Assembly (NCBI GenBank): GCA_046045965.1
Contig: JBJOKS010000002.1
Span: 96,001-160,000 of the forward strand
DNA: 64,000 nucleotides
Reading direction: 5' to 3'
DNA from: Cyanobacteriota bacterium
Lineage (GTDB): Bacteria > Cyanobacteriota > Cyanobacteriia > Cyanobacteriales > Nostocaceae
Shown: positions 37,609-64,000 of the stretch, one piece after another
Layout: each line of letters starts with the position of its first letter
How positions within the stretch are numbered: the stretch's first letter is position 1
The notes under the pieces: generated by a model
Told to the model about the DNA's origin: nothing
The model's database searches: none
The model's input: the letters and a program-made list of their open reading frames with translations, nothing else
Translations under genes and position numbers: made by a program

Positions 37609-39684
37609 ATGATATGCTGCTTAAATCCCGATTGCCAAAATCCACAAAATCCCGATGTCAACGAGTTTTGTCAAAGTTGTAATACTCCCTTAGTACCACT
37701 TTTAAGAAATCGTTTCCGCGTGATCCGGGTACTTTCCGATGAAGGAGGATTTGGTAGAACCTATCTATCAGAAGATACAGATAAATTAAATGATTGTTGT
37801 GTAGTTAAACAGTTAGCACCAAAATTTCAAGGAACTTGGTCACAAAAAAAAGCTATGGAGTTGTTTAGCGAAGAAGCAAAACGACTTCAAGAACTGGGAG
37901 AACATCCACAAATTCCCACTCTATTAGCTTATTTTGAACAAGATAACTGCTTGTATTTGGTACAACAGTTTATTGATGGCAATAATTTATTACAGGAGTT
38001 ACAGTTAAGAAAGAACTATAAAGATTGGGATATTCAATCTATTTTACTAGATTTGTTGCCTATTCTCAAATTTATTCATAGTCGAGGAGTGATTCATCGA
38101 GATATCAAACCTGAAAATATTATCCGACGTAAAAGTGATGGAAGATTAACACTAATTGATTTTGGTTCTTCCAAACAATTAACAGCTACAGTGCAGAAAA
38201 AACATGGTACTTCAATTGGTTCACATGGTTATTCTGCTATTGAACAAATCAGAGATGGTAAAGCTTACCCTGCTAGTGATTTATTTGGTTTAGGAGCTAC
38301 TTGCTTTCATTTAATCACGGGAATTTCTCCTTTTCAATTGTGGATGGAACATGGTTATAGTTGGGTAAAAAATTGGCAAGATTATTTGCGATCTCCTCTT
38401 AGTCATGAATTAGCAATTATTATTGATAAGTTGTTACAAACAGATATTCGGAATCGCTATCAATCTGCTGATGAAGTTATTAGAGATTTGAGTAAACAGT
38501 ACACACATTTACTAGCACCAGCTAGTAATTCTTTATTAGCAACACCACCAAAAAAAGCGGATGTTTATCCTAAAAAATATATTTTTCTGAGAAATTCACT
38601 TTTAATATTGGGGACGATGATATTTTTAGGTCTGGGAGAATTTGGTTATAGACACTTTCACCAACTACAAACAGCTATTTCTTCTCGTTTTAATTCCCCA
38701 ACAAAGAGTACAGCTAATAGTGATGCTGTTGTTTATCAACCACCACAAGAAAATATAGAAAAAATTGCTTTATTGAAAACTATTTCTGAACCAAATGAAT
38801 TGATTTTATCTGTTGCTATTACTCCAGATGGTCAAACTATTGCTAGTGGTGGTAATCTCATAATTAAATTATGGAATATTACCACAGGTCAAGAAATTAC
38901 AACCCTGAAAGGACATACAAAAAATGTCAATGTCGTAGCTATTAGTCCTGATGGTAAAAATGTGGTTAGTGGTAGTGATGACAAAACAATTAAAGTTTGG
39001 AATTTGCAAACAAAAAAGTTAGTTCATACCCTCATTAGTCATAGTGACTCAGTTCATGCTTTGGCTATTAGCAAAGATGGAAAAACTTTGATAAGTGCTG
39101 GTGATGATAAAACAATTAAAGTTTGGAATTTAGCTACAGGGAAGTTAATTCGTACTCTCAAAGGCCATGCTTACTGGGTGCGTTCTGTGGCTATTAGTCC
39201 TGATGGTGTTACCCTCGCAAGTGGTAGTTTTGATAAGACTATTAAACTGTGGAATATTACTCAAGAAACACCAATTCATAACTTAAGTCCAAATTCGCAA
39301 ACTGTGACATCTTTGGCTTTTAGTCCAGATGGTAAAATTCTTGCTAGTGCTAGTCGCGATCGGCAAATTAAACTCTGGAATCTCAATACAAAGACGGAAA
39401 TTAACACGATTACAAAAGAAGATCATAATGTCACATCTTTAGCTTTTAGTCCAGATGGTAAAACTCTTGTTAGTGGTAATCGCCATTGTACAGAATGTAA
39501 CGACACTATTAATCCTAATATTAAATTATGGGATGTCGTGACAGGTGAGGAACTTTCCACTGTAACTGGACATACTAACACAGTTACTTCTCTGGTTTTT
39601 AGCGCAGATGGTAAAATTTTAGTTAGTAGTGGAGAGGATAATAAAATTAACATTTGGCGTTTTTTACAGTCCAGCAAGGAATAG
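37609..39684 (+). CDS. Ser/Thr kinase with 4-Cys prefix, TM and WD40 propeller
   Basis: CLNPDC..CQSC, GGFGRTY, HRDIKPEN, DFG, seven WD repeats. Confidence 0.92.
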   Translation: MICCLNPDCQNPQNPDVNEFCQSCNTPLVPLLRNRFRVIRVLSDEGGFGRTYLSEDTDKLNDCCVVKQLAPKFQGTWSQKKAMELFSEEAKRLQELGEHPQIPTLLAYFEQDNCLYLVQQFIDGNNLLQELQLRKNYKDWDIQSILLDLLPILKFIHSRGVIHRDIKPENIIRRKSDGRLTLIDFGSSKQLTATVQKKHGTSIGSHGYSAIEQIRDGKAYPASDLFGLGATCFHLITGISPFQLWMEHGYSWVKNWQDYLRSPLSHELAIIIDKLLQTDIRNRYQSADEVIRDLSKQYTHLLAPASNSLLATPPKKADVYPKKYIFLRNSLLILGTMIFLGLGEFGYRHFHQLQTAISSRFNSPTKSTANSDAVVYQPPQENIEKIALLKTISEPNELILSVAITPDGQTIASGGNLIIKLWNITTGQEITTLKGHTKNVNVVAISPDGKNVVSGSDDKTIKVWNLQTKKLVHTLISHSDSVHALAISKDGKTLISAGDDKTIKVWNLATGKLIRTLKGHAYWVRSVAISPDGVTLASGSFDKTIKLWNITQETPIHNLSPNSQTVTSLAFSPDGKILASASRDRQIKLWNLNTKTEINTITKEDHNVTSLAFSPDGKTLVSGNRHCTECNDTINPNIKLWDVVTGEELSTVTGHTNTVTSLVFSADGKILVSSGEDNKINIWRFLQSSKE

Positions 39685-55618: not shown

Positions 55619-55938
55619 AATGTAATTACAATGTACGTGAGTCGGTGTGAAAGTTTGAACCGCTGGTTTTGCGCTCCAGGCAGAATTTTCGGTAAAGTTT
55701 TAAGTTTCCATATTACCAGCTTAGTAGGTTTTATCCCAGGTGTGGCAACAGGATGAGTGATTATGTGATGCGGAAGTGAAGAATAAGGGTGTGGGGTTTG
55801 GGATGTAGGGTGTAGATTTAATCGCATGATTATTAAAATAATCTTTTCATAAACGATATAAAAACAAATCTCCAGTAATATTGATGATTTGAAATTAAGT
55901 CTAATTTTCTACCTTGAACTGCAAGAGGATTGATTTTT

Positions 55939-56421
55939 ATGTCTGCATCTATAAAAAATCAAGCTTATATTGCTGCTTTGTGGGAACAACCAACTTTATG
56001 CCTAGCATTCTTTGGTGTGCAGTTTCAGACTGAAGAAGGTCAAAAACTGTATAATGATTCGGGTATCCAGGAAGAAATTTTACCAGCTTTAGCTGCGGCT
56101 GAATCTGAAGGGTTGTTGCTCAACCGGGAGATGATGACTAAAGAGGGTCCGGTGATTATGCAATATTGGAGATCCCACGAAGAGTTAAATCAATGGTCGC
56201 ATAAACTTCCCCATACTCGCTGGTGGCAATGGTTAGTAGATAATACTGATAAGGGTGTTTGCTTTTATCACGAAATTTATCAGGTAAAAACCGCAGAAGC
56301 AATTTATGAACCTGGTACTCAACCTGTTGGACCGGCGGTGTTTTGTTCTTTGTATCCTGTGAAGACTGGGGAAGGAAAGTCAAAACAGCGTCAGCAAAAA
56401 TTTACGGAAGCTGCAAATTAG
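55939..56421 (+). CDS. DUF4188 / monooxygenase-like protein
   Basis: MQYWRS..L..W...PH..WW and YHEIY motifs. Confidence 0.65.
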   Translation: MSASIKNQAYIAALWEQPTLCLAFFGVQFQTEEGQKLYNDSGIQEEILPALAAAESEGLLLNREMMTKEGPVIMQYWRSHEELNQWSHKLPHTRWWQWLVDNTDKGVCFYHEIYQVKTAEAIYEPGTQPVGPAVFCSLYPVKTGEGKSKQRQQKFTEAAN

Positions 56422-58436: not shown

Positions 58437-60000
58437 ATGATCATAGAATTTTCTACCATCACTTCTGCTATTAGTAAAGTTGCTCCTCAAGCAAGTCAAC
58501 TACTAATTAAACACGCGCAAAGAAACGAAGCTTGTAATCAAAGTTTTACAGGAATTAAAACTCAATCCAACAGAAATTCCTGATGATATTGATGGAGTTT
58601 ATGCTTATAGCTTGGTTAGATATGGGATATTTAAACATTCAGCCATATTAAACCTGTTTAGAGAAAAGCCAATAAAAGATTATTTTTGGGATGCTTACAG
58701 TAATAATGCCCCGTTTCAGTTTGTAGAAAATGCCAAAAAATACTTGAATTTAAATAGTGAATTAAAGACACAAGTAATTAATAGTAAAATTAATTTTTTA
58801 GCAGAGTTAGAAGAATTTGGTGAGGCTTTTATTGCTGTTGCCAAACAAACCAAGAACGAAAAATATCAACCTTATCCAGATTGGGATTTAGATATTTATC
58901 CTAAAGAATTTAAAGCCTTAATTTTTGAAAAGACTCGCTTATTTTGCGGTCGTGATTTTGTATTTAAAGCTATCAATCAATTTTTCACAACTCAACCCAA
59001 AGGTTATTTTACAGTGATTGGGGATGCAGGGATGGGAAAAAGTGCGATCGCATCCAAATACGTTTTAGCTACTAAATTTCTTTGTTATTTTAATATCTTT
59101 GCAGAAGGACGCAACAAACCAGAGAAATTTTTAGCTAGTATGCGTCAACAATTAATCAAACGCTACTCTTTACAAAATGCAGAAACCGCAGATTTAAGGA
59201 CTTTATTAGAAAAAGTCAGTGAAAAAGGACAAAGATTAGTCATTGTTGTTGATGCACTAGATGAAGTAGAACAAGAAGGAAATGGTAATCTTTTAGATTT
59301 ACCCCAAAACCTGCCTAACGGCATTTATTTTTTACTAACCAGAAGACCTTATAATCAAGAAACCAAACGTTTAACAGTTTCTCCTGATACTCCTGTTAGT
59401 GAATTGGATTTAACCAAAGGTGATTATACAGCTTTGAGTCAGGAAGATATCAAAGAATATCTGCACTTATTTTTAAACAACGACAAAAAACTGAGAAATT
59501 GGATTAATGAACGTCATATTTCTGAGGAAAGTTTTGTGGAACAAATAGCGGTCAAGAGTGAGAATAATTTTATCTATTTACGTTATCTTTTACCAGGAAT
59601 ATCTGAAGGTAAATATAACGATTTAACTTTACAGGGATTACTCCAAGGATTACAGGATTATTATACAACCCATTGGACACGCATGGGCATGGATAAAGAA
59701 TCTAATGAAAAGAAAGTGAAAATACTTTATATCTTGGTAGAAAGAGGTGAAGCAATTTCTAGTGAAATGATTGCGGATATTCTCGATGAAGATGAATATG
59801 ATGTGAAAGACGTTTTAAATGATTGGATAGAATATGTGACACCGAAAGTAAATTTAAAGGAACAGAAAACTTACTATAGTATTTATCATCGCAGTTTTTT
59901 AGAATTTCTTAAAGGTCAGGATAAATTAGGCAAAGGAAGGAAACTGTTTAGGGAAGTTAATAAGAGTATGGCTGATTATATGCTCAAGGAGATGGAATAA
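58437..60000 (+). pseudogene. STAND/NACHT-like P-loop NTPase with a single +1 frameshift near codon 32
   Basis: FCGRDFVF, Walker A GDAGMGKS, Walker B IVVDALDE, YSIYHRSF winged-helix motif; ATG at 58437 joins the 58612 frame if one T at 58532-58533 is removed (520 aa). Confidence 0.75.
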
Positions 60001-60001
60001 A

Positions 60002-60649
60002 ATGGATTTCTCAGCTTTGTACCAATGGATTATTAATTTACAAATTGCAAAAATAGCACCAGTTATAGGAATAGTTATAGCGGTCATAGTGAATTTTCCA
60101 AAAATTTACGCTATGGTGAGAGGAGTAATTGTTAAAATTGAAATTAAACAGTTTACTCTTGTCGAAAGAGAACCCGGCTTAGTGGATTTTCAACTTAATT
60201 TATGTATGCACGCCTTATATGGAAAGGTAGTCGTTAAAGGAATTTATTTGGTAAATAAACACAAGTTTCATTTACTATACAATGAGTCAATTTGCTTATA
60301 TAATGAACCAGATAACAATACACCAAGTAATAAGGCAATAATAAAACTTGCTATGCCTATGATTGACTTTGAGTTTACTCAATTTGTAGAGGATAAATTT
60401 AAAGAGTTACTTTGCAAAAAATTGGAACAGTCTCAAGTGAATGTTCTCGGATTTGAAATTCTTGAAAATTCATTCAAGTGTTTAACAATGGCTGGTAGAT
60501 TAAAAGGAAAACTTGATGGCATATATTTTTCAAATATTTCTTTGGAAAATTGGAGTGTCCTGGTGGAATATGGTACTGATAAATGGACACGCACCACCAA
60601 GACAGAACTTATGTCTTCGATTATTGACAATGAGAAAACTATTTATTAA
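60002..60649 (+). CDS. Hypothetical protein with N-terminal TM anchor
   Basis: 215-aa ORF starting 1 nt after the NTPase stop, behind AGGAG; hydrophobic residues 17-31. Confidence 0.65.
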   Translation: MDFSALYQWIINLQIAKIAPVIGIVIAVIVNFPKIYAMVRGVIVKIEIKQFTLVEREPGLVDFQLNLCMHALYGKVVVKGIYLVNKHKFHLLYNESICLYNEPDNNTPSNKAIIKLAMPMIDFEFTQFVEDKFKELLCKKLEQSQVNVLGFEILENSFKCLTMAGRLKGKLDGIYFSNISLENWSVLVEYGTDKWTRTTKTELMSSIIDNEKTIY

Positions 60650-61347
60650 CTATCAATACCTCCGTTTAATGATTCCAGTCGTAATAGCCATGAATTAAAA
60701 TGAGGACATTTATCCCGAATTACTTCTAATCCAATTGATTCAGCTAATAGTGAGCCAACAGTAGATTTTGCTCTTTCATAATCAGGAAATTGGGCAATAA
60801 TACGTTTACTGGGGGCTGTTTCCTTGCTATCATTAATCAACTCAGGGGTTTCATAGCTATCAGAAATAGTCTTGAGAATTACAACCTTATCTGAGCAATT
60901 ATCATAAAAGGACTCAAAACAAGTTGGATCAGAAAAAAGATAAGCCTCGTATTCATGCAATTGAATGTACGGTATGAATCGAGGATCATCAATATCATCA
61001 GCAAAGCTTTTCTCCAAAAACTCGACTCGTTTGATGGGATTTTGGCGCATAATTTCAGATGCTGCTAATCCCGGTAAATTATGATGAATTGCATACAAAT
61101 CAATCATGGTAGTAAAAAATACATTAGTTCCTTTCTCCTGCTTGAGAAAACGCAAAATGTCGTCCCTCATGGGCTGATAGTCACCATAACCGCTACCACC
61201 ACGATGAGCCTTTCCCTTTTTTCTTGCGTGAGCAATTAATATAATCTTGTCCAAAAAAACACCGTATTTAGCAAGGTGTGGTTTCAGGATGCTATCAGCA
61301 AATGTTTGTTCAGTTGGTCCTTCAGCAAATAAATAGAGTCGTATCAT
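60646..61347 (-). CDS. DUF4276 family (TOPRIM-like) protein
   Basis: LFAEGPTE, TMIDLY, HEYEAYLF, PELIND..ETAPSKR, IRDKCPHFNSWL; start overlaps the ATPase stop (TAATG). Confidence 0.82.
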   Translation of the reverse strand: MIRLYLFAEGPTEQTFADSILKPHLAKYGVFLDKIILIAHARKKGKAHRGGSGYGDYQPMRDDILRFLKQEKGTNVFFTTMIDLYAIHHNLPGLAASEIMRQNPIKRVEFLEKSFADDIDDPRFIPYIQLHEYEAYLFSDPTCFESFYDNCSDKVVILKTISDSYETPELINDSKETAPSKRIIAQFPDYERAKSTVGSLLAESIGLEVIRDKCPHFNSWLLRLESLNGGIDS

Positions 61348-62444
61348 TAGTGTGGACCTCCACCAAGGATATTTTTTTCCCACATTTCTCCCAAACTATA
61401 TTCTTCTAACCAAGCTTCTAATTCTTCGGGATTTAACCGCTTAAATTGCGACTCCTTACCCACTCTATCTACTGTAATTACATCTTCAGCATTAAAGTTA
61501 TCTAAGAAAGAACTAGATTGGGTGCTGATGAGAATTTGTGTATGATAGGAAGCCTTACCAAACATCGCAGCTACAACATTGAGCGCATAGGGATGAAGAC
61601 CCAGTTCCGGTTCATCAACAATTATTAGTTCTGGAAGTTCTGTTTCTGGCTGCAAAAGCAACGTAGTCAGGCAGATAGCTCGCAAAGTACCGTCCGAAAA
61701 TTGGTGTGGACCAAATACTTGATCTGAGCCTTTTTCTCGCCAATTGAGAATGATATTAGTCCCTCTACGCTCAAGGACAAAATCATCAAAAAATGGGGCA
61801 ATCAAACGGATAGTTTTAATAATACGCTGATAAACTGTATTATTATCGTCGCGGAATCGGAGGAGTAATGCGGCTAAATTTCCCGCATCAGGTTTTAACT
61901 GAAGATTGTCATCAACATAACCGGCTAGACGAACTGCGGCAGTAGAAGACGTATCATGAAAGTGGTAAACATGGCAATACTTGAGCAAATGTTTGATAGT
62001 GTTGGCAATTGTTGGCGTACCTTCTTGTGCTGCTTTGTTGATTTTTGTTTCCTGATGTCCTGCACCGAATGAGTAAGTGGTTGAGGGTTGAGGTAGGTGT
62101 GAGCCGTTTCGCGTCCCTGTTTCTTCAGCAAATATCAAAGTATCACCTGCCGCATGAACTAGACAGATTTTATAGATAATATCCCCTTTGTCAATCTTGA
62201 ACTCTAGTTTTGCTTCTATTTCCCGTGTTACCTTCGGTCCAAAGTGCAATAGGGATTGAGCATAACCCGATATGCCGATATATTCTTGAAGTCGTTCGGC
62301 CATCATCTCATTCAGCATCTTGAAAAAGGAGATCAGATTGCTCTTACCTGCTCCATTAGCTCCAATCAATATGTTTAAGGGACGCAACTCAAGATCCATT
62401 GTCTTAATGGACTTGAAGCCCTTGATCATTAGTCGCTGTAGCAT
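61347..62444 (-). CDS. ABC-type ATPase (AAA_21/AAA_15-like)
   Basis: IKGFKSI, GANGAGKSN, FSDGT signature, IVDEPELGLHP, STQS. Confidence 0.9.
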   Translation of the reverse strand: MLQRLMIKGFKSIKTMDLELRPLNILIGANGAGKSNLISFFKMLNEMMAERLQEYIGISGYAQSLLHFGPKVTREIEAKLEFKIDKGDIIYKICLVHAAGDTLIFAEETGTRNGSHLPQPSTTYSFGAGHQETKINKAAQEGTPTIANTIKHLLKYCHVYHFHDTSSTAAVRLAGYVDDNLQLKPDAGNLAALLLRFRDDNNTVYQRIIKTIRLIAPFFDDFVLERRGTNIILNWREKGSDQVFGPHQFSDGTLRAICLTTLLLQPETELPELIIVDEPELGLHPYALNVVAAMFGKASYHTQILISTQSSSFLDNFNAEDVITVDRVGKESQFKRLNPEELEAWLEEYSLGEMWEKNILGGGPH

Positions 62445-62533
62445 GACAAACAATTAGTTCTTATACAAAATAATTATAATATATGTAATCTCTCTGTACA
62501 GGATAAAAAATTAAAAAATTACGCAAAGTGCTG

Positions 62534-62581
62534 TATTGACGGTTGAGATTTTGATAATTTAATTGAAGAGATAGATAGTTT
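62534..62581 (+). pseudogene. Fragment of a second DUF29 gene
   Basis: 48 nt matching 62993-63040 with 3 mismatches. Confidence 0.7.
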
Positions 62582-62632
62582 TGGAGATTGGAATAAAAAG
62601 GTAAATAATGAATGGTTTTCTATTAACTGGAG

Positions 62633-62839
62633 ATGATGAAAATGACACTGATTGAATTACGTACAAAAGGTTATCAAGCCTTAGTTAAAGAGTTAGGATT
62701 AATTGACACAATACGCTTTTTACAAGAAATGGGTTGGGGTTCTGGTGACTATACAAAAGAAGGCAAAAAGTCTCTAAAAAATGTAACAAGAGGAGAATTT
62801 TGACAAGATATTGAAGAAATTACAAAGGAGAAAATTTGA
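62633..62839 (+). pseudogene. Small antitoxin-like ORF with in-frame TGA at 62801
   Basis: MMKMTLIELRTKGYQALVKELGLIDTIRFLQEMGWGSGDYTKE...EF*QDIEEI; resembles small proteins that usually follow PIN genes. Confidence 0.6.
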
Positions 62840-62903
62840 ATTTATCATAATAGTAAATAAAGTTATATAATGTTTAATAACATAACAATTAAGAGGCGGA
62901 AAA

Positions 62904-63353
62904 ATGACACAGATACAACCAGAAGTATCCTTATATGAACAAGATTACTTACTCTGGATAGAAGATATAGTTAACAAATTACGTAATAGGGATATTGACG
63001 GTTTAGATTTTGATAATTTAATTGAGGAGATAGACAGTTTGGGACGTTCAGATAAACGTGAGTTAGAAAGTAGACTCAGAGAACTTTTAGAGCATATTCT
63101 CAAGCGCAAATATGTGGATATGCCTGATTGTTCTCGTGGTTGGGTAGAATCTATTAACAAGCAAAGGATTGGAATTAGAAAATTACTCAAAGATTCACCA
63201 AGTCTCAAGCCCTATTTTAGCACAGTATTTGATGAAGTTTATGCGGATACTCTCAAAATCGTATCTATGAGTTATCCACAGTGTGAATTTCCTGATAAAT
63301 GGCCATTTAGTTGTGATATTGATGCAATGCTAAATGTGGATTTTTGGGAATAA
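62904..63353 (+). CDS. DUF29 domain protein
   Basis: LYEQDYLLW, DNLIEEIDSLG, LLKDSPSLK, FPDKWPF. Confidence 0.9.
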   Translation: MTQIQPEVSLYEQDYLLWIEDIVNKLRNRDIDGLDFDNLIEEIDSLGRSDKRELESRLRELLEHILKRKYVDMPDCSRGWVESINKQRIGIRKLLKDSPSLKPYFSTVFDEVYADTLKIVSMSYPQCEFPDKWPFSCDIDAMLNVDFWE

Positions 63354-63420
63354 TTAAATAATATACCAGATCCTCGACTTCTTAAATAATTCGGGGATCT
63401 AAATCAGGAGGTGTCATAAA

Positions 63421-64000
63421 ATGGGAAATCTTGCCGATAAATTAACCACAAAATCACCAGAATTTAAAAATATGTTTTTAGGTCAATTTCCTGAACAACA
63501 ACTCAAAGCAGGAAACACAGATAAATATTATCAAACTCTCACGGATTTTGATTTTATCTCTCTCAAAATCAATTATACTCAATTGGGAATAGAAGCATTA
63601 ATCAAAGATTATGATTTAATTGAAAATCCTGAAATATTAGAACTTTTAGCGGATGATGAACAACTAACAACAGGACAAATTAAAACTTTAAAATTAATTC
63701 AAAGAACCTTAGAATTATCAGCCTATATTTTAAACGAACATCCTCATCAATTAGTCGGTCAACTCTGGGGAAGATTACAGAGTTGTCAAAATCCCGATAT
63801 TCAGAAATTATTACAAGATGCAGCAGCAAGTAAAAGTGAAATTCCCCGATTTATTCCCATTAAATCCAGCTTAAATACTCCTGACGGAAAATTATTGCGT
63901 ACTCTTAAAGGTCATGATAACGCAGTCAGAGCAGTAGCAATTACACCGGATGGGAAAAAAGCTGTTTCTGGTTCTGATGATAAAACTTTGAAATTATGGA
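63421..64000 (+). CDS. APAF1-helical-domain plus WD40 repeat protein (runs off the window)
   Basis: Not in the ORF track because it has no stop in the window; AGGAGG RBS; MGNLADK...LTDFDFISLKI..GIEALIKDYD..QLVGQLWGRL..LRTLKGHDNAVRAVAITPDGKKAVSGSDDKTLKLW. Confidence 0.88.
   Translation, partial: MGNLADKLTTKSPEFKNMFLGQFPEQQLKAGNTDKYYQTLTDFDFISLKINYTQLGIEALIKDYDLIENPEILELLADDEQLTTGQIKTLKLIQRTLELSAYILNEHPHQLVGQLWGRLQSCQNPDIQKLLQDAAASKSEIPRFIPIKSSLNTPDGKLLRTLKGHDNAVRAVAITPDGKKAVSGSDDKTLKLW

Follow-up and report, generated by a model that had tools for sequence, protein, structure and literature searches.

A probable Apaf-1-like receptor of cyanobacteria with ATP switch and WD40 sensor on separate genes, found as a probably decaying copy in a Nostocaceae contig

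Here we describe a gene module at the end of a 64,000-nucleotide stretch of Nostocaceae DNA (hereafter the window; Cyanobacteriota bacterium, assembly GCA_046045965.1, contig JBJOKS010000002.1, forward-strand positions 96,001 to 160,000), in which an NTPase of the STAND class (signal transduction ATPases that have numerous domains), NTPase A, and a WD40-repeat sensor are encoded by separate genes. The module is a real and undescribed variant of the architecture of Apaf-1 and of nucleotide-binding leucine-rich-repeat (NLR) proteins, with a probable role in immunity, and its copy in the window appears to be decaying. A sequence-only reading of the window had proposed a two-component NLR. We found that switch and sensor are indeed separate genes in conserved linkage, lying within 15 bp of each other (overlaps included) in 110 of 133 loci, but that the usual module has three genes, since a second NTPase, NTPase B, was reached in 95 of the 133.

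Results

NTPase A starts with ATG 58437 (position 1 is the first letter of the window; features lie on the + strand unless noted). Its first 32 codons (58437..58533), which encode the beginning of an NNH5 domain, end at one extra base, and the remainder (58534..60000) encodes the rest of the NNH5 helical domain, a NACHT-like nucleotide-binding domain (NBD), helical domain 1 (HD1), a winged-helix domain and a C-terminal helix that corresponds to the first helix of helical domain 2 (HD2). Beyond the frameshift, the frame is open from 58534 to 60000 and contains Walker A (59020-59043), a Walker B motif of sequence DALDE (59251-59265) and the winged-helix motif YHRSF (59884-59898). As the sequence-only reading had noted of this STAND gene, the protein terminates shortly past its YHxxF motif, about 35 residues after it. 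Pfam identified NNH5 (E 1e-33), NACHT (E 1.3e-6) and NPHP3_N (E 2e-6); the NACHT clade matches were above their curated cut-offs but marginal (PF05729, 28.8 bits with a cut-off of 26.7; PF24883, 28.6 bits with a cut-off of 24.8), and Pfam gave no match to NB-ARC (PF00931). NACHT proteins have the Walker B signature hhhhD[GAS]hDE, and NB-ARC proteins carry GxP in HD1. The Walker B motif of NTPase A is of the NACHT type, and the consensus of A proteins reads SENNFMYL where GxP would stand. Walker A, GxxGxGK(S/T), and Walker B, D(A/G)LDE, are kept in 135 of 135 matched A proteins. A sequence search of solved structures returned nothing for NTPase A or for the helical domain of the sensor, and an atlas search with the N-terminus of NTPase A gave leads only, namely unnamed clusters and NNH2/NNH5.

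The sensor gene starts at 63421, 3420 bp after NTPase A and in the same orientation, consistent with the earlier claim of a gene with a helical domain and WD40 repeats 3.4 kb downstream. The window edge cuts it (63421..64000); it runs to the window-equivalent position 64266 (L001 7422-8267) and encodes only 281 amino acids, an HD2-like helical domain (residues 1-138) followed by three WD40 repeats. Pfam APAF1_C (PF17908) did not match the focal sensor; it is listed for a fused relative, P0010.

Structural comparison placed the two halves on one fold. The model of NTPase A (pLDDT, or predicted local distance difference test, of 90) and the fold searches show the STAND layout of a P-loop NBD followed by HD1 and a winged-helix domain, and the top Foldseek matches of the model were Apaf-1. 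In VIA-align, NTPase A spans Apaf-1 residues 107-469, with Z scores of 20.2 for archaeal ATPases, 17.8 for plant NLRs and 10.6-12.2 for Apaf-1; its likeness to Apaf-1 would be a match of fold, with no implication of orthology. Sensor residues 3-138 aligned with Apaf-1 residues 469-586 (117 aligned, root-mean-square deviation 2.9) with a Z of 8.9, a range graded ambiguous for helical bundles. This match was top-ranked and collinear, the HD2 domains of Apaf-1 and Dark being the best matches, and it identifies by structure an HD2 of the APAF1_C type ahead of the WD40 propellers. Because NTPase A ends, and the sensor starts, at Apaf-1 residue 469, the halves are predicted to meet at that residue, one helix into HD2, which would place the split of the receptor inside this domain. 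The sequence-only reading had held that the helical domain normally follows the NTPase motif in one polypeptide, and this holds, since in five of the 78 longer homologues inspected at the junction (P0010, P0026, P0032, P0033 and P0040) both profiles join end to end at the same point. The module's NTPase polypeptide carries no repeat sensor, the fused form being found in a minority of relatives only.

A predicted complex, one of the checks that had been suggested, was obtained for the window's A core with the sensor helical domain, with a score of 0.82 compared to 0.00 for the best control. Of solved complexes, 116 of 157 attain that mark, as do 2 of 215 mismatched pairs; for our own alignments these counts are rough. 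The runs agreed in at least 91% of contacts, with a partner pLDDT of at least 79, and the predicted interface joins residues 359-373 (the last helix) and 289-298 (part of the winged helix) of NTPase A to sensor residues 4-35. The models thereby support docking of the last helix of NTPase A on the sensor; this docking helix (59941..59994, model residues 356-373) carries the main predicted sensor contact and has no equivalent in NTPase B. Since the halves of a split gene can pass by structural likeness, the prediction supports binding without showing it.

We mapped the module across the family. Homologues of NTPase A at E 1e-150 or better were found in 104 of 389 family genomes, a patchy presence, and at E 0.001 NTPase A matched 34 of 61 relatives across the order, some through the N-terminal domain only. 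After removal of duplicates there were 140 A loci, 133 of which had a downstream sensor gene; the seven left out were three contig ends, two fragments, one deletion fusion and one inversion. The counts over these loci are tallies rather than tests, kin not being independent. Tabulating the NTPase/sensor pairs, as had also been suggested, showed that the orthologues are linked, with a gap of at most 300 bp in 128 of the 133 loci. Among the 95 loci in which NTPase B was reached, 83 had one helical-domain gene, 7 had two, 3 had three and 2 had none left, and the usual module consists of NTPase A, a sensor with helical domain and WD40 repeats, and a bare NTPase B. The ratio of nonsynonymous to synonymous substitution rates (dN/dS) was below 1 for both NTPases in 10 of 10 pairs (A 0.06-0.54, B 0.23-0.43), as expected of genes under purifying selection. 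The genome of the window holds three further such modules (C72:1-2370, C14:55640-60221 and C94:1-1762). In two of them, on C72 and C14, NTPase A abuts the sensor; two leave their contig ends within the WD40 repeats, and on C14 the sensor has 1050 amino acids and B is lacking. A Chroococcidiopsis plasmid bears a complete A-sensor-B module beside an integrase. The search for relatives of NTPase A in viral contigs gave 105 pattern matches, none of which was confirmed. Matches on rhizobial plasmids were distant, comprising one fused-length protein and one broken locus, and were not used.

Several loci depart from the usual layout. At the same site in the same genus, L032:4588-15343 carries A, three sensors with helical domain and WD40 repeats, a fourth, WD40-only gene of 624-625 amino acids, which also occurs in L142, and B, all abutting. 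L033:3290-19900, compared with L142, has undergone an inversion spanning about 18 kb, one breakpoint of which is the A/sensor junction; the housekeeping genes relA, mltA and cemA now part an intact A from its sensor.

NTPase B of the focal locus is a bare NTPase of 342 amino acids that begins 4 bp after the sensor, outside the window (L001 8272-9300), and is 35% identical to NTPase A. It has no output domain. GKS is present in all B proteins (96 of 96); among those matched at Walker B, 1 of 63 has the glutamate, as against 135 of 135 A proteins. The protein ends a median of 17 residues past the YH motif in B and 38 in A, so B, stopping earlier, is without the docking helix. In loci with room to see it, B accompanies 79 of 85 NNH5-type A genes and 13 of 23 others. 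B also occurs in other settings: sensor and NTPase B are fused in L076:5888-8839 and L109:5857-8682 (983 and 941 amino acids); in L055:7356-9605 a 749-residue protein (P0002) unites NNH5 with a shortened A and with B, and there is no sensor alongside; and in L066:5211-9099 a B-type NTPase stands directly behind an 878-residue Cap4 nuclease-NTPase protein, in place of a WD40 sensor.

The repeats of the sensors are alike within a gene and vary at particular positions. Most of 113 complete sensors had 14-15 repeat lengths, and 14 had five or fewer (L057, of 805 amino acids, had been miscounted as short and was removed from that set). For the 102 genes that contain at least four exact 42-residue repeats, median likeness of repeats at the DNA level was 83% within genes compared to 64% between genes. 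Across 1025 within-gene repeat pairs more than 85% alike, the amino acid was changed in 46-66% of pairs at columns 4, 5, 7, 23 and 25 (GH = 1, 2), with silent change in 2-8%, a contrast that is descriptive because repeat pairs are not independent. In the fungal protein HET-E, positions 11, 12, 14, 30 and 32 are under selection (PMC12222747; here and below, published systems are described from the available portions of the cited texts). The five sensor columns have the same spacing as these positions, the likeness being one of spacing only, as the two numberings are unaligned. In the HET-E paper, alleles with fewer than ten repeats form a non-reactive class (PMC12222747), which suggests that the three-repeat focal sensor may not be functional.

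At the other end of the receptor, the N-termini of A proteins are exchangeable, comprising NNH5, Cro and LuxR helix-turn-helix (HTH) domains, HEPN_Swt1, kinase, EAD4 and EAD10. The longer homologues, 78 in all, include NTPases with the same end point that bear CHAT, caspase, nucleoside phosphorylase, GUN4 or kinase domains.

The copy in the window is damaged. Alignment to two intact orthologues showed that NTPase A has a +1 frameshift at 58532/58533, a single extra T, and the letters around it are identical in a contig of the probable source sample, the only sample in which the site was checked. Two RNA runs contain part of the stretch. The earliest ATG of the frame downstream of the frameshift sits within Walker A, and a full-length NTPase A product from this copy is thus unlikely. 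With A frameshifted and the last sensor shrunk to three repeats, the window copy is probably inactive and in decay.

Between NTPase A and the sensor lie the passenger genes that the sequence-only reading had listed, an inverted pair of genes for an ABC ATPase and a DUF4276 protein, two relics and a DUF29 gene, all of which we found. The passengers begin with a 215-residue protein with a hydrophobic N-terminal segment (60002..60649), whose ATG occupies the position of the first sensor's ATG in orthologous loci. This protein had been called an orphan transmembrane protein, but it is no orphan: it has 21 homologues in a small family of cyanobacterial proteins, uncharacterised and about 230 amino acids long. 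It had no Pfam or PADLOC match, and an atlas search gave leads only, under 0.9. A broken copy of its gene lies between housekeeping genes in L134. Next come, on the - strand, the DUF4276 gene (60646..61347; Pfam E 1.4e-56; PADLOC HEC-01B E 1.5e-72), whose product is TOPRIM-like according to Payne et al., in the part of that work available, and the ABC ATPase gene (61347..62447; Pfam AAA_21 E 2.3e-25; PADLOC HEC-01A E 2.8e-142), which overlap at 61347 and so form the adjacent pair of ABC ATPase and DUF4276/TOPRIM genes that defines HEC-01. We saw no target-site duplication or terminal repeat around HEC-01. A 64-bp relic of a DUF29 gene follows (62534..62597; repeat family D2), 86% like the intact DUF29 gene, and then relics of a PIN toxin gene, of which the last 16 codons remain, and of its overlapping 68-codon partner, broken by a premature TGA at 62801-62803 (together 62605..62839). 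The pair is intact in L144 and L143 (PIN by Pfam, E 2e-6), and from its position the partner is a probable antitoxin. The DUF29 gene itself (62904..63353) was identified by Pfam; L144 has only its 3' tail. A short palindromic dispersed repeat (63368..63401) precedes the sensor and has a relative behind NTPase B (repeat families D7 and I1), with copies at 10 and 15 matching places in the genome.

Passengers of this kind are seldom found at the junction. DNA matches to the cargo stretch occur in 62 of 389 genomes. Genes stand between A and sensor in only 3 of the 133 loci, the window locus, L037 and L056, and the proposal that the junction is a recurrent insertion site was therefore not upheld. 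The L037 junction holds an HSDR_N-like gene. In L056:1794-12386, two split modules are nested in opposite orientation: a kinase-NTPase has its sensor 6.2 kb downstream, and between the two lie HNH, XisH/XisI and a complete module of HEPN_Swt1-NTPase and sensor. The junctions of L036 and L222, with gaps of 279 and 548 bp, also hold open reading frames of 87 amino acids; these are short and chance-like and were left out of the cargo count. In none of 14 loci around the best-matching HEC-01 pairs (L135-L141 and L147-L153) was HEC-01 beside a module gene, and L146 holds a HEC-01 fragment only. By comparison, 28 of 95 loci have genes between the last sensor and B, 25 of them being one inherited inverted Uma2 gene (identified by Pfam for two and by near-identical sequence for the others). 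Passenger genes gather behind sensor genes, not in the NTPase/sensor junction.

This pattern bears on the history of the window copy. L144, at the same site between kinase and amidohydrolase genes, has the order A, sensor, PIN toxin, partner, DUF29 tail, palindromic repeat, sensor, B, and of the 12 other genomes with the PIN pair or a relic of it in the mapped loci, 9 have it immediately after a sensor. This synteny, together with the position of the 215-residue protein's ATG, argues that a first sensor has been lost and that the PIN-partner and DUF29 relics probably belong to the spacer behind it. The simplest history would be that sensor 1 and most of the PIN gene were lost, with the 215-residue gene and HEC-01 now in their place. 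Isolate run X9 has a contig in which an A gene's final codons are followed at once by the HEC-01 block (95% identical), with most of the 215-residue gene missing, and a contig of run X4 skips DUF29. The intervening genes thus vary among close strains rather than being invariant; one contig has a depth of 3. Collectively, the passengers are ordinary mobile defence and toxin-antitoxin genes, and the cargo adds little.

Elsewhere in the window, at about 38770-39483, there is another WD40-repeat gene, with no match to the helical domain, and at 55930-56421 a small protein of the monooxygenase af470-like or haem dehydratase type is encoded beside a Ser/Thr kinase gene.

Discussion

We propose that the module is a STAND receptor of the Apaf-1/NWD type cut within HD2. 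Gene A would supply the output domain, the ATP switch and the first HD2 helix, and the sensor gene the remainder of HD2 and a double propeller of WD40 repeats, so that the two chains could rebuild HD2 by helix complementation, as the models predict. Because the sensor is on a separate chain, one switch could serve several sensors, as the tandem arrays of two to three (once four, counting the gene without a helical domain) would allow, and at the level of sequence the sensors diversify at five surface positions through recombination between repeats that are nearly identical. By analogy with other STAND proteins, a ligand, most likely a phage or other non-self protein, would free A to oligomerise and unite its N-terminal domains. 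NTPase B, with Walker A kept but no Walker B glutamate, output domain or docking helix, most likely assembles together with A, acting as a brake or spacer that has no output of its own and tunes A assembly. In this genome, the 215-residue gene and HEC-01 would have replaced the first sensor, A is frameshifted and the last sensor is down to three repeats. Taken as a whole, an immune-receptor-like split switch with a decaying copy here is the explanation we consider probable. A bolder form of it, in which one ATP switch takes interchangeable WD40 sensors through a single complementing helix, a filamentous cyanobacterium widens or changes its recognition repertoire by duplication or exchange of sensor genes alone, and the catalytically altered twin NTPase sets the firing threshold, is possible but doubtful.

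Some of the evidence weighs against this explanation. The complex score may stem from likeness to solved Apaf-1-type structures, the column contrast in the repeats is only descriptive, and B is missing in 16 of the 108 loci with room to see it and is therefore not essential. A tree of 37 sensor N-termini placed the focal sensor in an open polytomy, leaving ancestry among the sensors undecided, and by similarity the focal sensor is as close to one first-position sensor (0.73) as to second-position ones (0.72-0.75); the argument for a lost sensor accordingly rests on synteny. Many module copies, and indeed whole clades with stable positions, lie among housekeeping genes (with pheT, rbcL and gdh-type neighbours) and not in defence islands. 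The commonest output domain, NNH5, has no known activity, toxic or other, and several A proteins have an HTH domain or lack an N-terminal domain, features as compatible with signalling as with killing. The last two points, the Cro-type and LuxR-type HTH domains in particular, would also be expected if the same split receptor answered to cues from the cell or its environment as a switch in signalling or transcription, like MalT or AfsR, instead of sensing invaders, and the low dN/dS of A and the lack of a confirmed copy in viral contigs point the same way. Yet hypervariable surface positions in concertedly evolving repeats, variable sensor number and frequent decay are hallmarks of conflict systems, and relatives carry CHAT/caspase, HEPN and nucleoside phosphorylase domains, so that we consider a signalling role rather unlikely.

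An immune receptor could also be built with other partners or parts. B rather than A might pair with the sensor, as in NAIP/NLRC4, with sensor and B nucleating and A executing, or B might be a second active switch: B follows the sensor in most loci and is fused to its C-terminus in L076 and L109, its GKS motif is kept in every B protein counted and its dN/dS is low, and L055/P0002 joins A and B with no sensor. We regard this arrangement as improbable, given that B ends before the helix that bears most predicted contacts and that in the distant clade B is often absent from the module (10 of 23). More improbable still is the view that accessory defence genes land repeatedly in the NTPase/sensor junction and that the cargo there is part of the system. 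The three loci with junction genes, the inversion that broke L033 at this very point, the differing content among close strains (the HEC-01 block behind an A end in X9, the missing DUF29 in X4) and the original discovery of HEC-01 embedded in another system could all be read in its favour. However, 130 of the 133 loci have no gene there, 110 being closed to within 15 bp, HEC-01 stands apart from the module in all 12 of the other complete or almost complete pairs fetched, X9 shares the same event rather than adding a new one, and the relics belong behind the lost sensor. We therefore retain the split immune receptor as our working model.

In known NLR and Apaf-1 proteins, autoinhibition relies on having sensor and switch in one chain. 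A natural family that is cut inside HD2, is under purifying selection and occurs in about a quarter of the family's genomes offers a direct test of how release of a sensor activates a STAND switch, and allows one to ask whether several sensors can be read by one switch and what part is played by a twin NTPase altered in hydrolysis. It is, moreover, a bacterial case of HET-E-like repeat diversification. If sensors are truly interchangeable, the module would be to bacteria what HET-E allorecognition is to fungi, and a natural chassis into which new sensors could be plugged to re-aim an NLR. The window copy, with its frameshift and shrunken sensor, is a poor experimental subject, and intact orthologues such as those in L144 and L032 suit better.

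The available literature describes fused cyanobacterial Apaf-1 homologues and predicted conflict systems but, in the portions at hand, gives no account of such a split; these NTPases may be listed in supplementary material, for instance in the STAND clade tables of PMC13581612. In those portions, the term "split" is absent from 10.1101/2022.07.19.500537 and appears in PMC13581612 only in a methods line on Avs7/Dsr1. Among known systems, HEC-01 (Hma-embedded candidate 01; 10.1101/2024.01.29.577857) is, as here, an ABC ATPase gene overlapping a DUF4276/TOPRIM-like gene and embedded in another system, although at the window that system is a STAND module and not Hma; it gave no protection against the phages assayed in E. 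coli (10.1101/2024.01.29.577857). Bacterial NACHT and Avs proteins (10.1101/2022.07.19.500537, PMC13581612) have in common with the split module a STAND switch, exchangeable N-terminal effectors, an NNH-type domain and enrichment in multicellular cyanobacteria, and NTPase A gave a weak, partial match to PADLOC Avs1b (E 1.5e-13, positions 302-531 of 1924), but they are single-chain effector-NTPase-sensor proteins. The APAF1_C/WD40 protein of Ulva, which has no NB-ARC (PMC8891106), is a stand-alone HD2 with WD40 repeats like the module's sensor; its authors considered a partner NB-ARC at a separate locus, with no solitary NB-ARC found in Ulva (PMC8891106), whereas in the split module the NTPase partner gene adjoins the sensor. 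HET-E and HET-D (HNWD/NWD; PMC12222747) share a NACHT-type NTPase, WD40 repeats of high internal conservation, repeat length polymorphism and equally spaced hypervariable positions, but HET-E is one polypeptide with a HET effector, and the cyanobacterial module is bacterial and keeps sensor and switch separate. Apaf-1, Dark, CED-4 and their fused bacterial orthologues (PMC13581612) have the order NBD-HD1-winged helix-HD2-WD40 in common with the split module, and the closest Apaf-1 homologues have been placed in cyanobacteria (PMC13581612). Compared to Apaf-1, the split module is cut inside HD2 into two genes, has several sensors per switch and an extra NTPase, and combines a NACHT-type Walker B with an HD1 that is without GxP.

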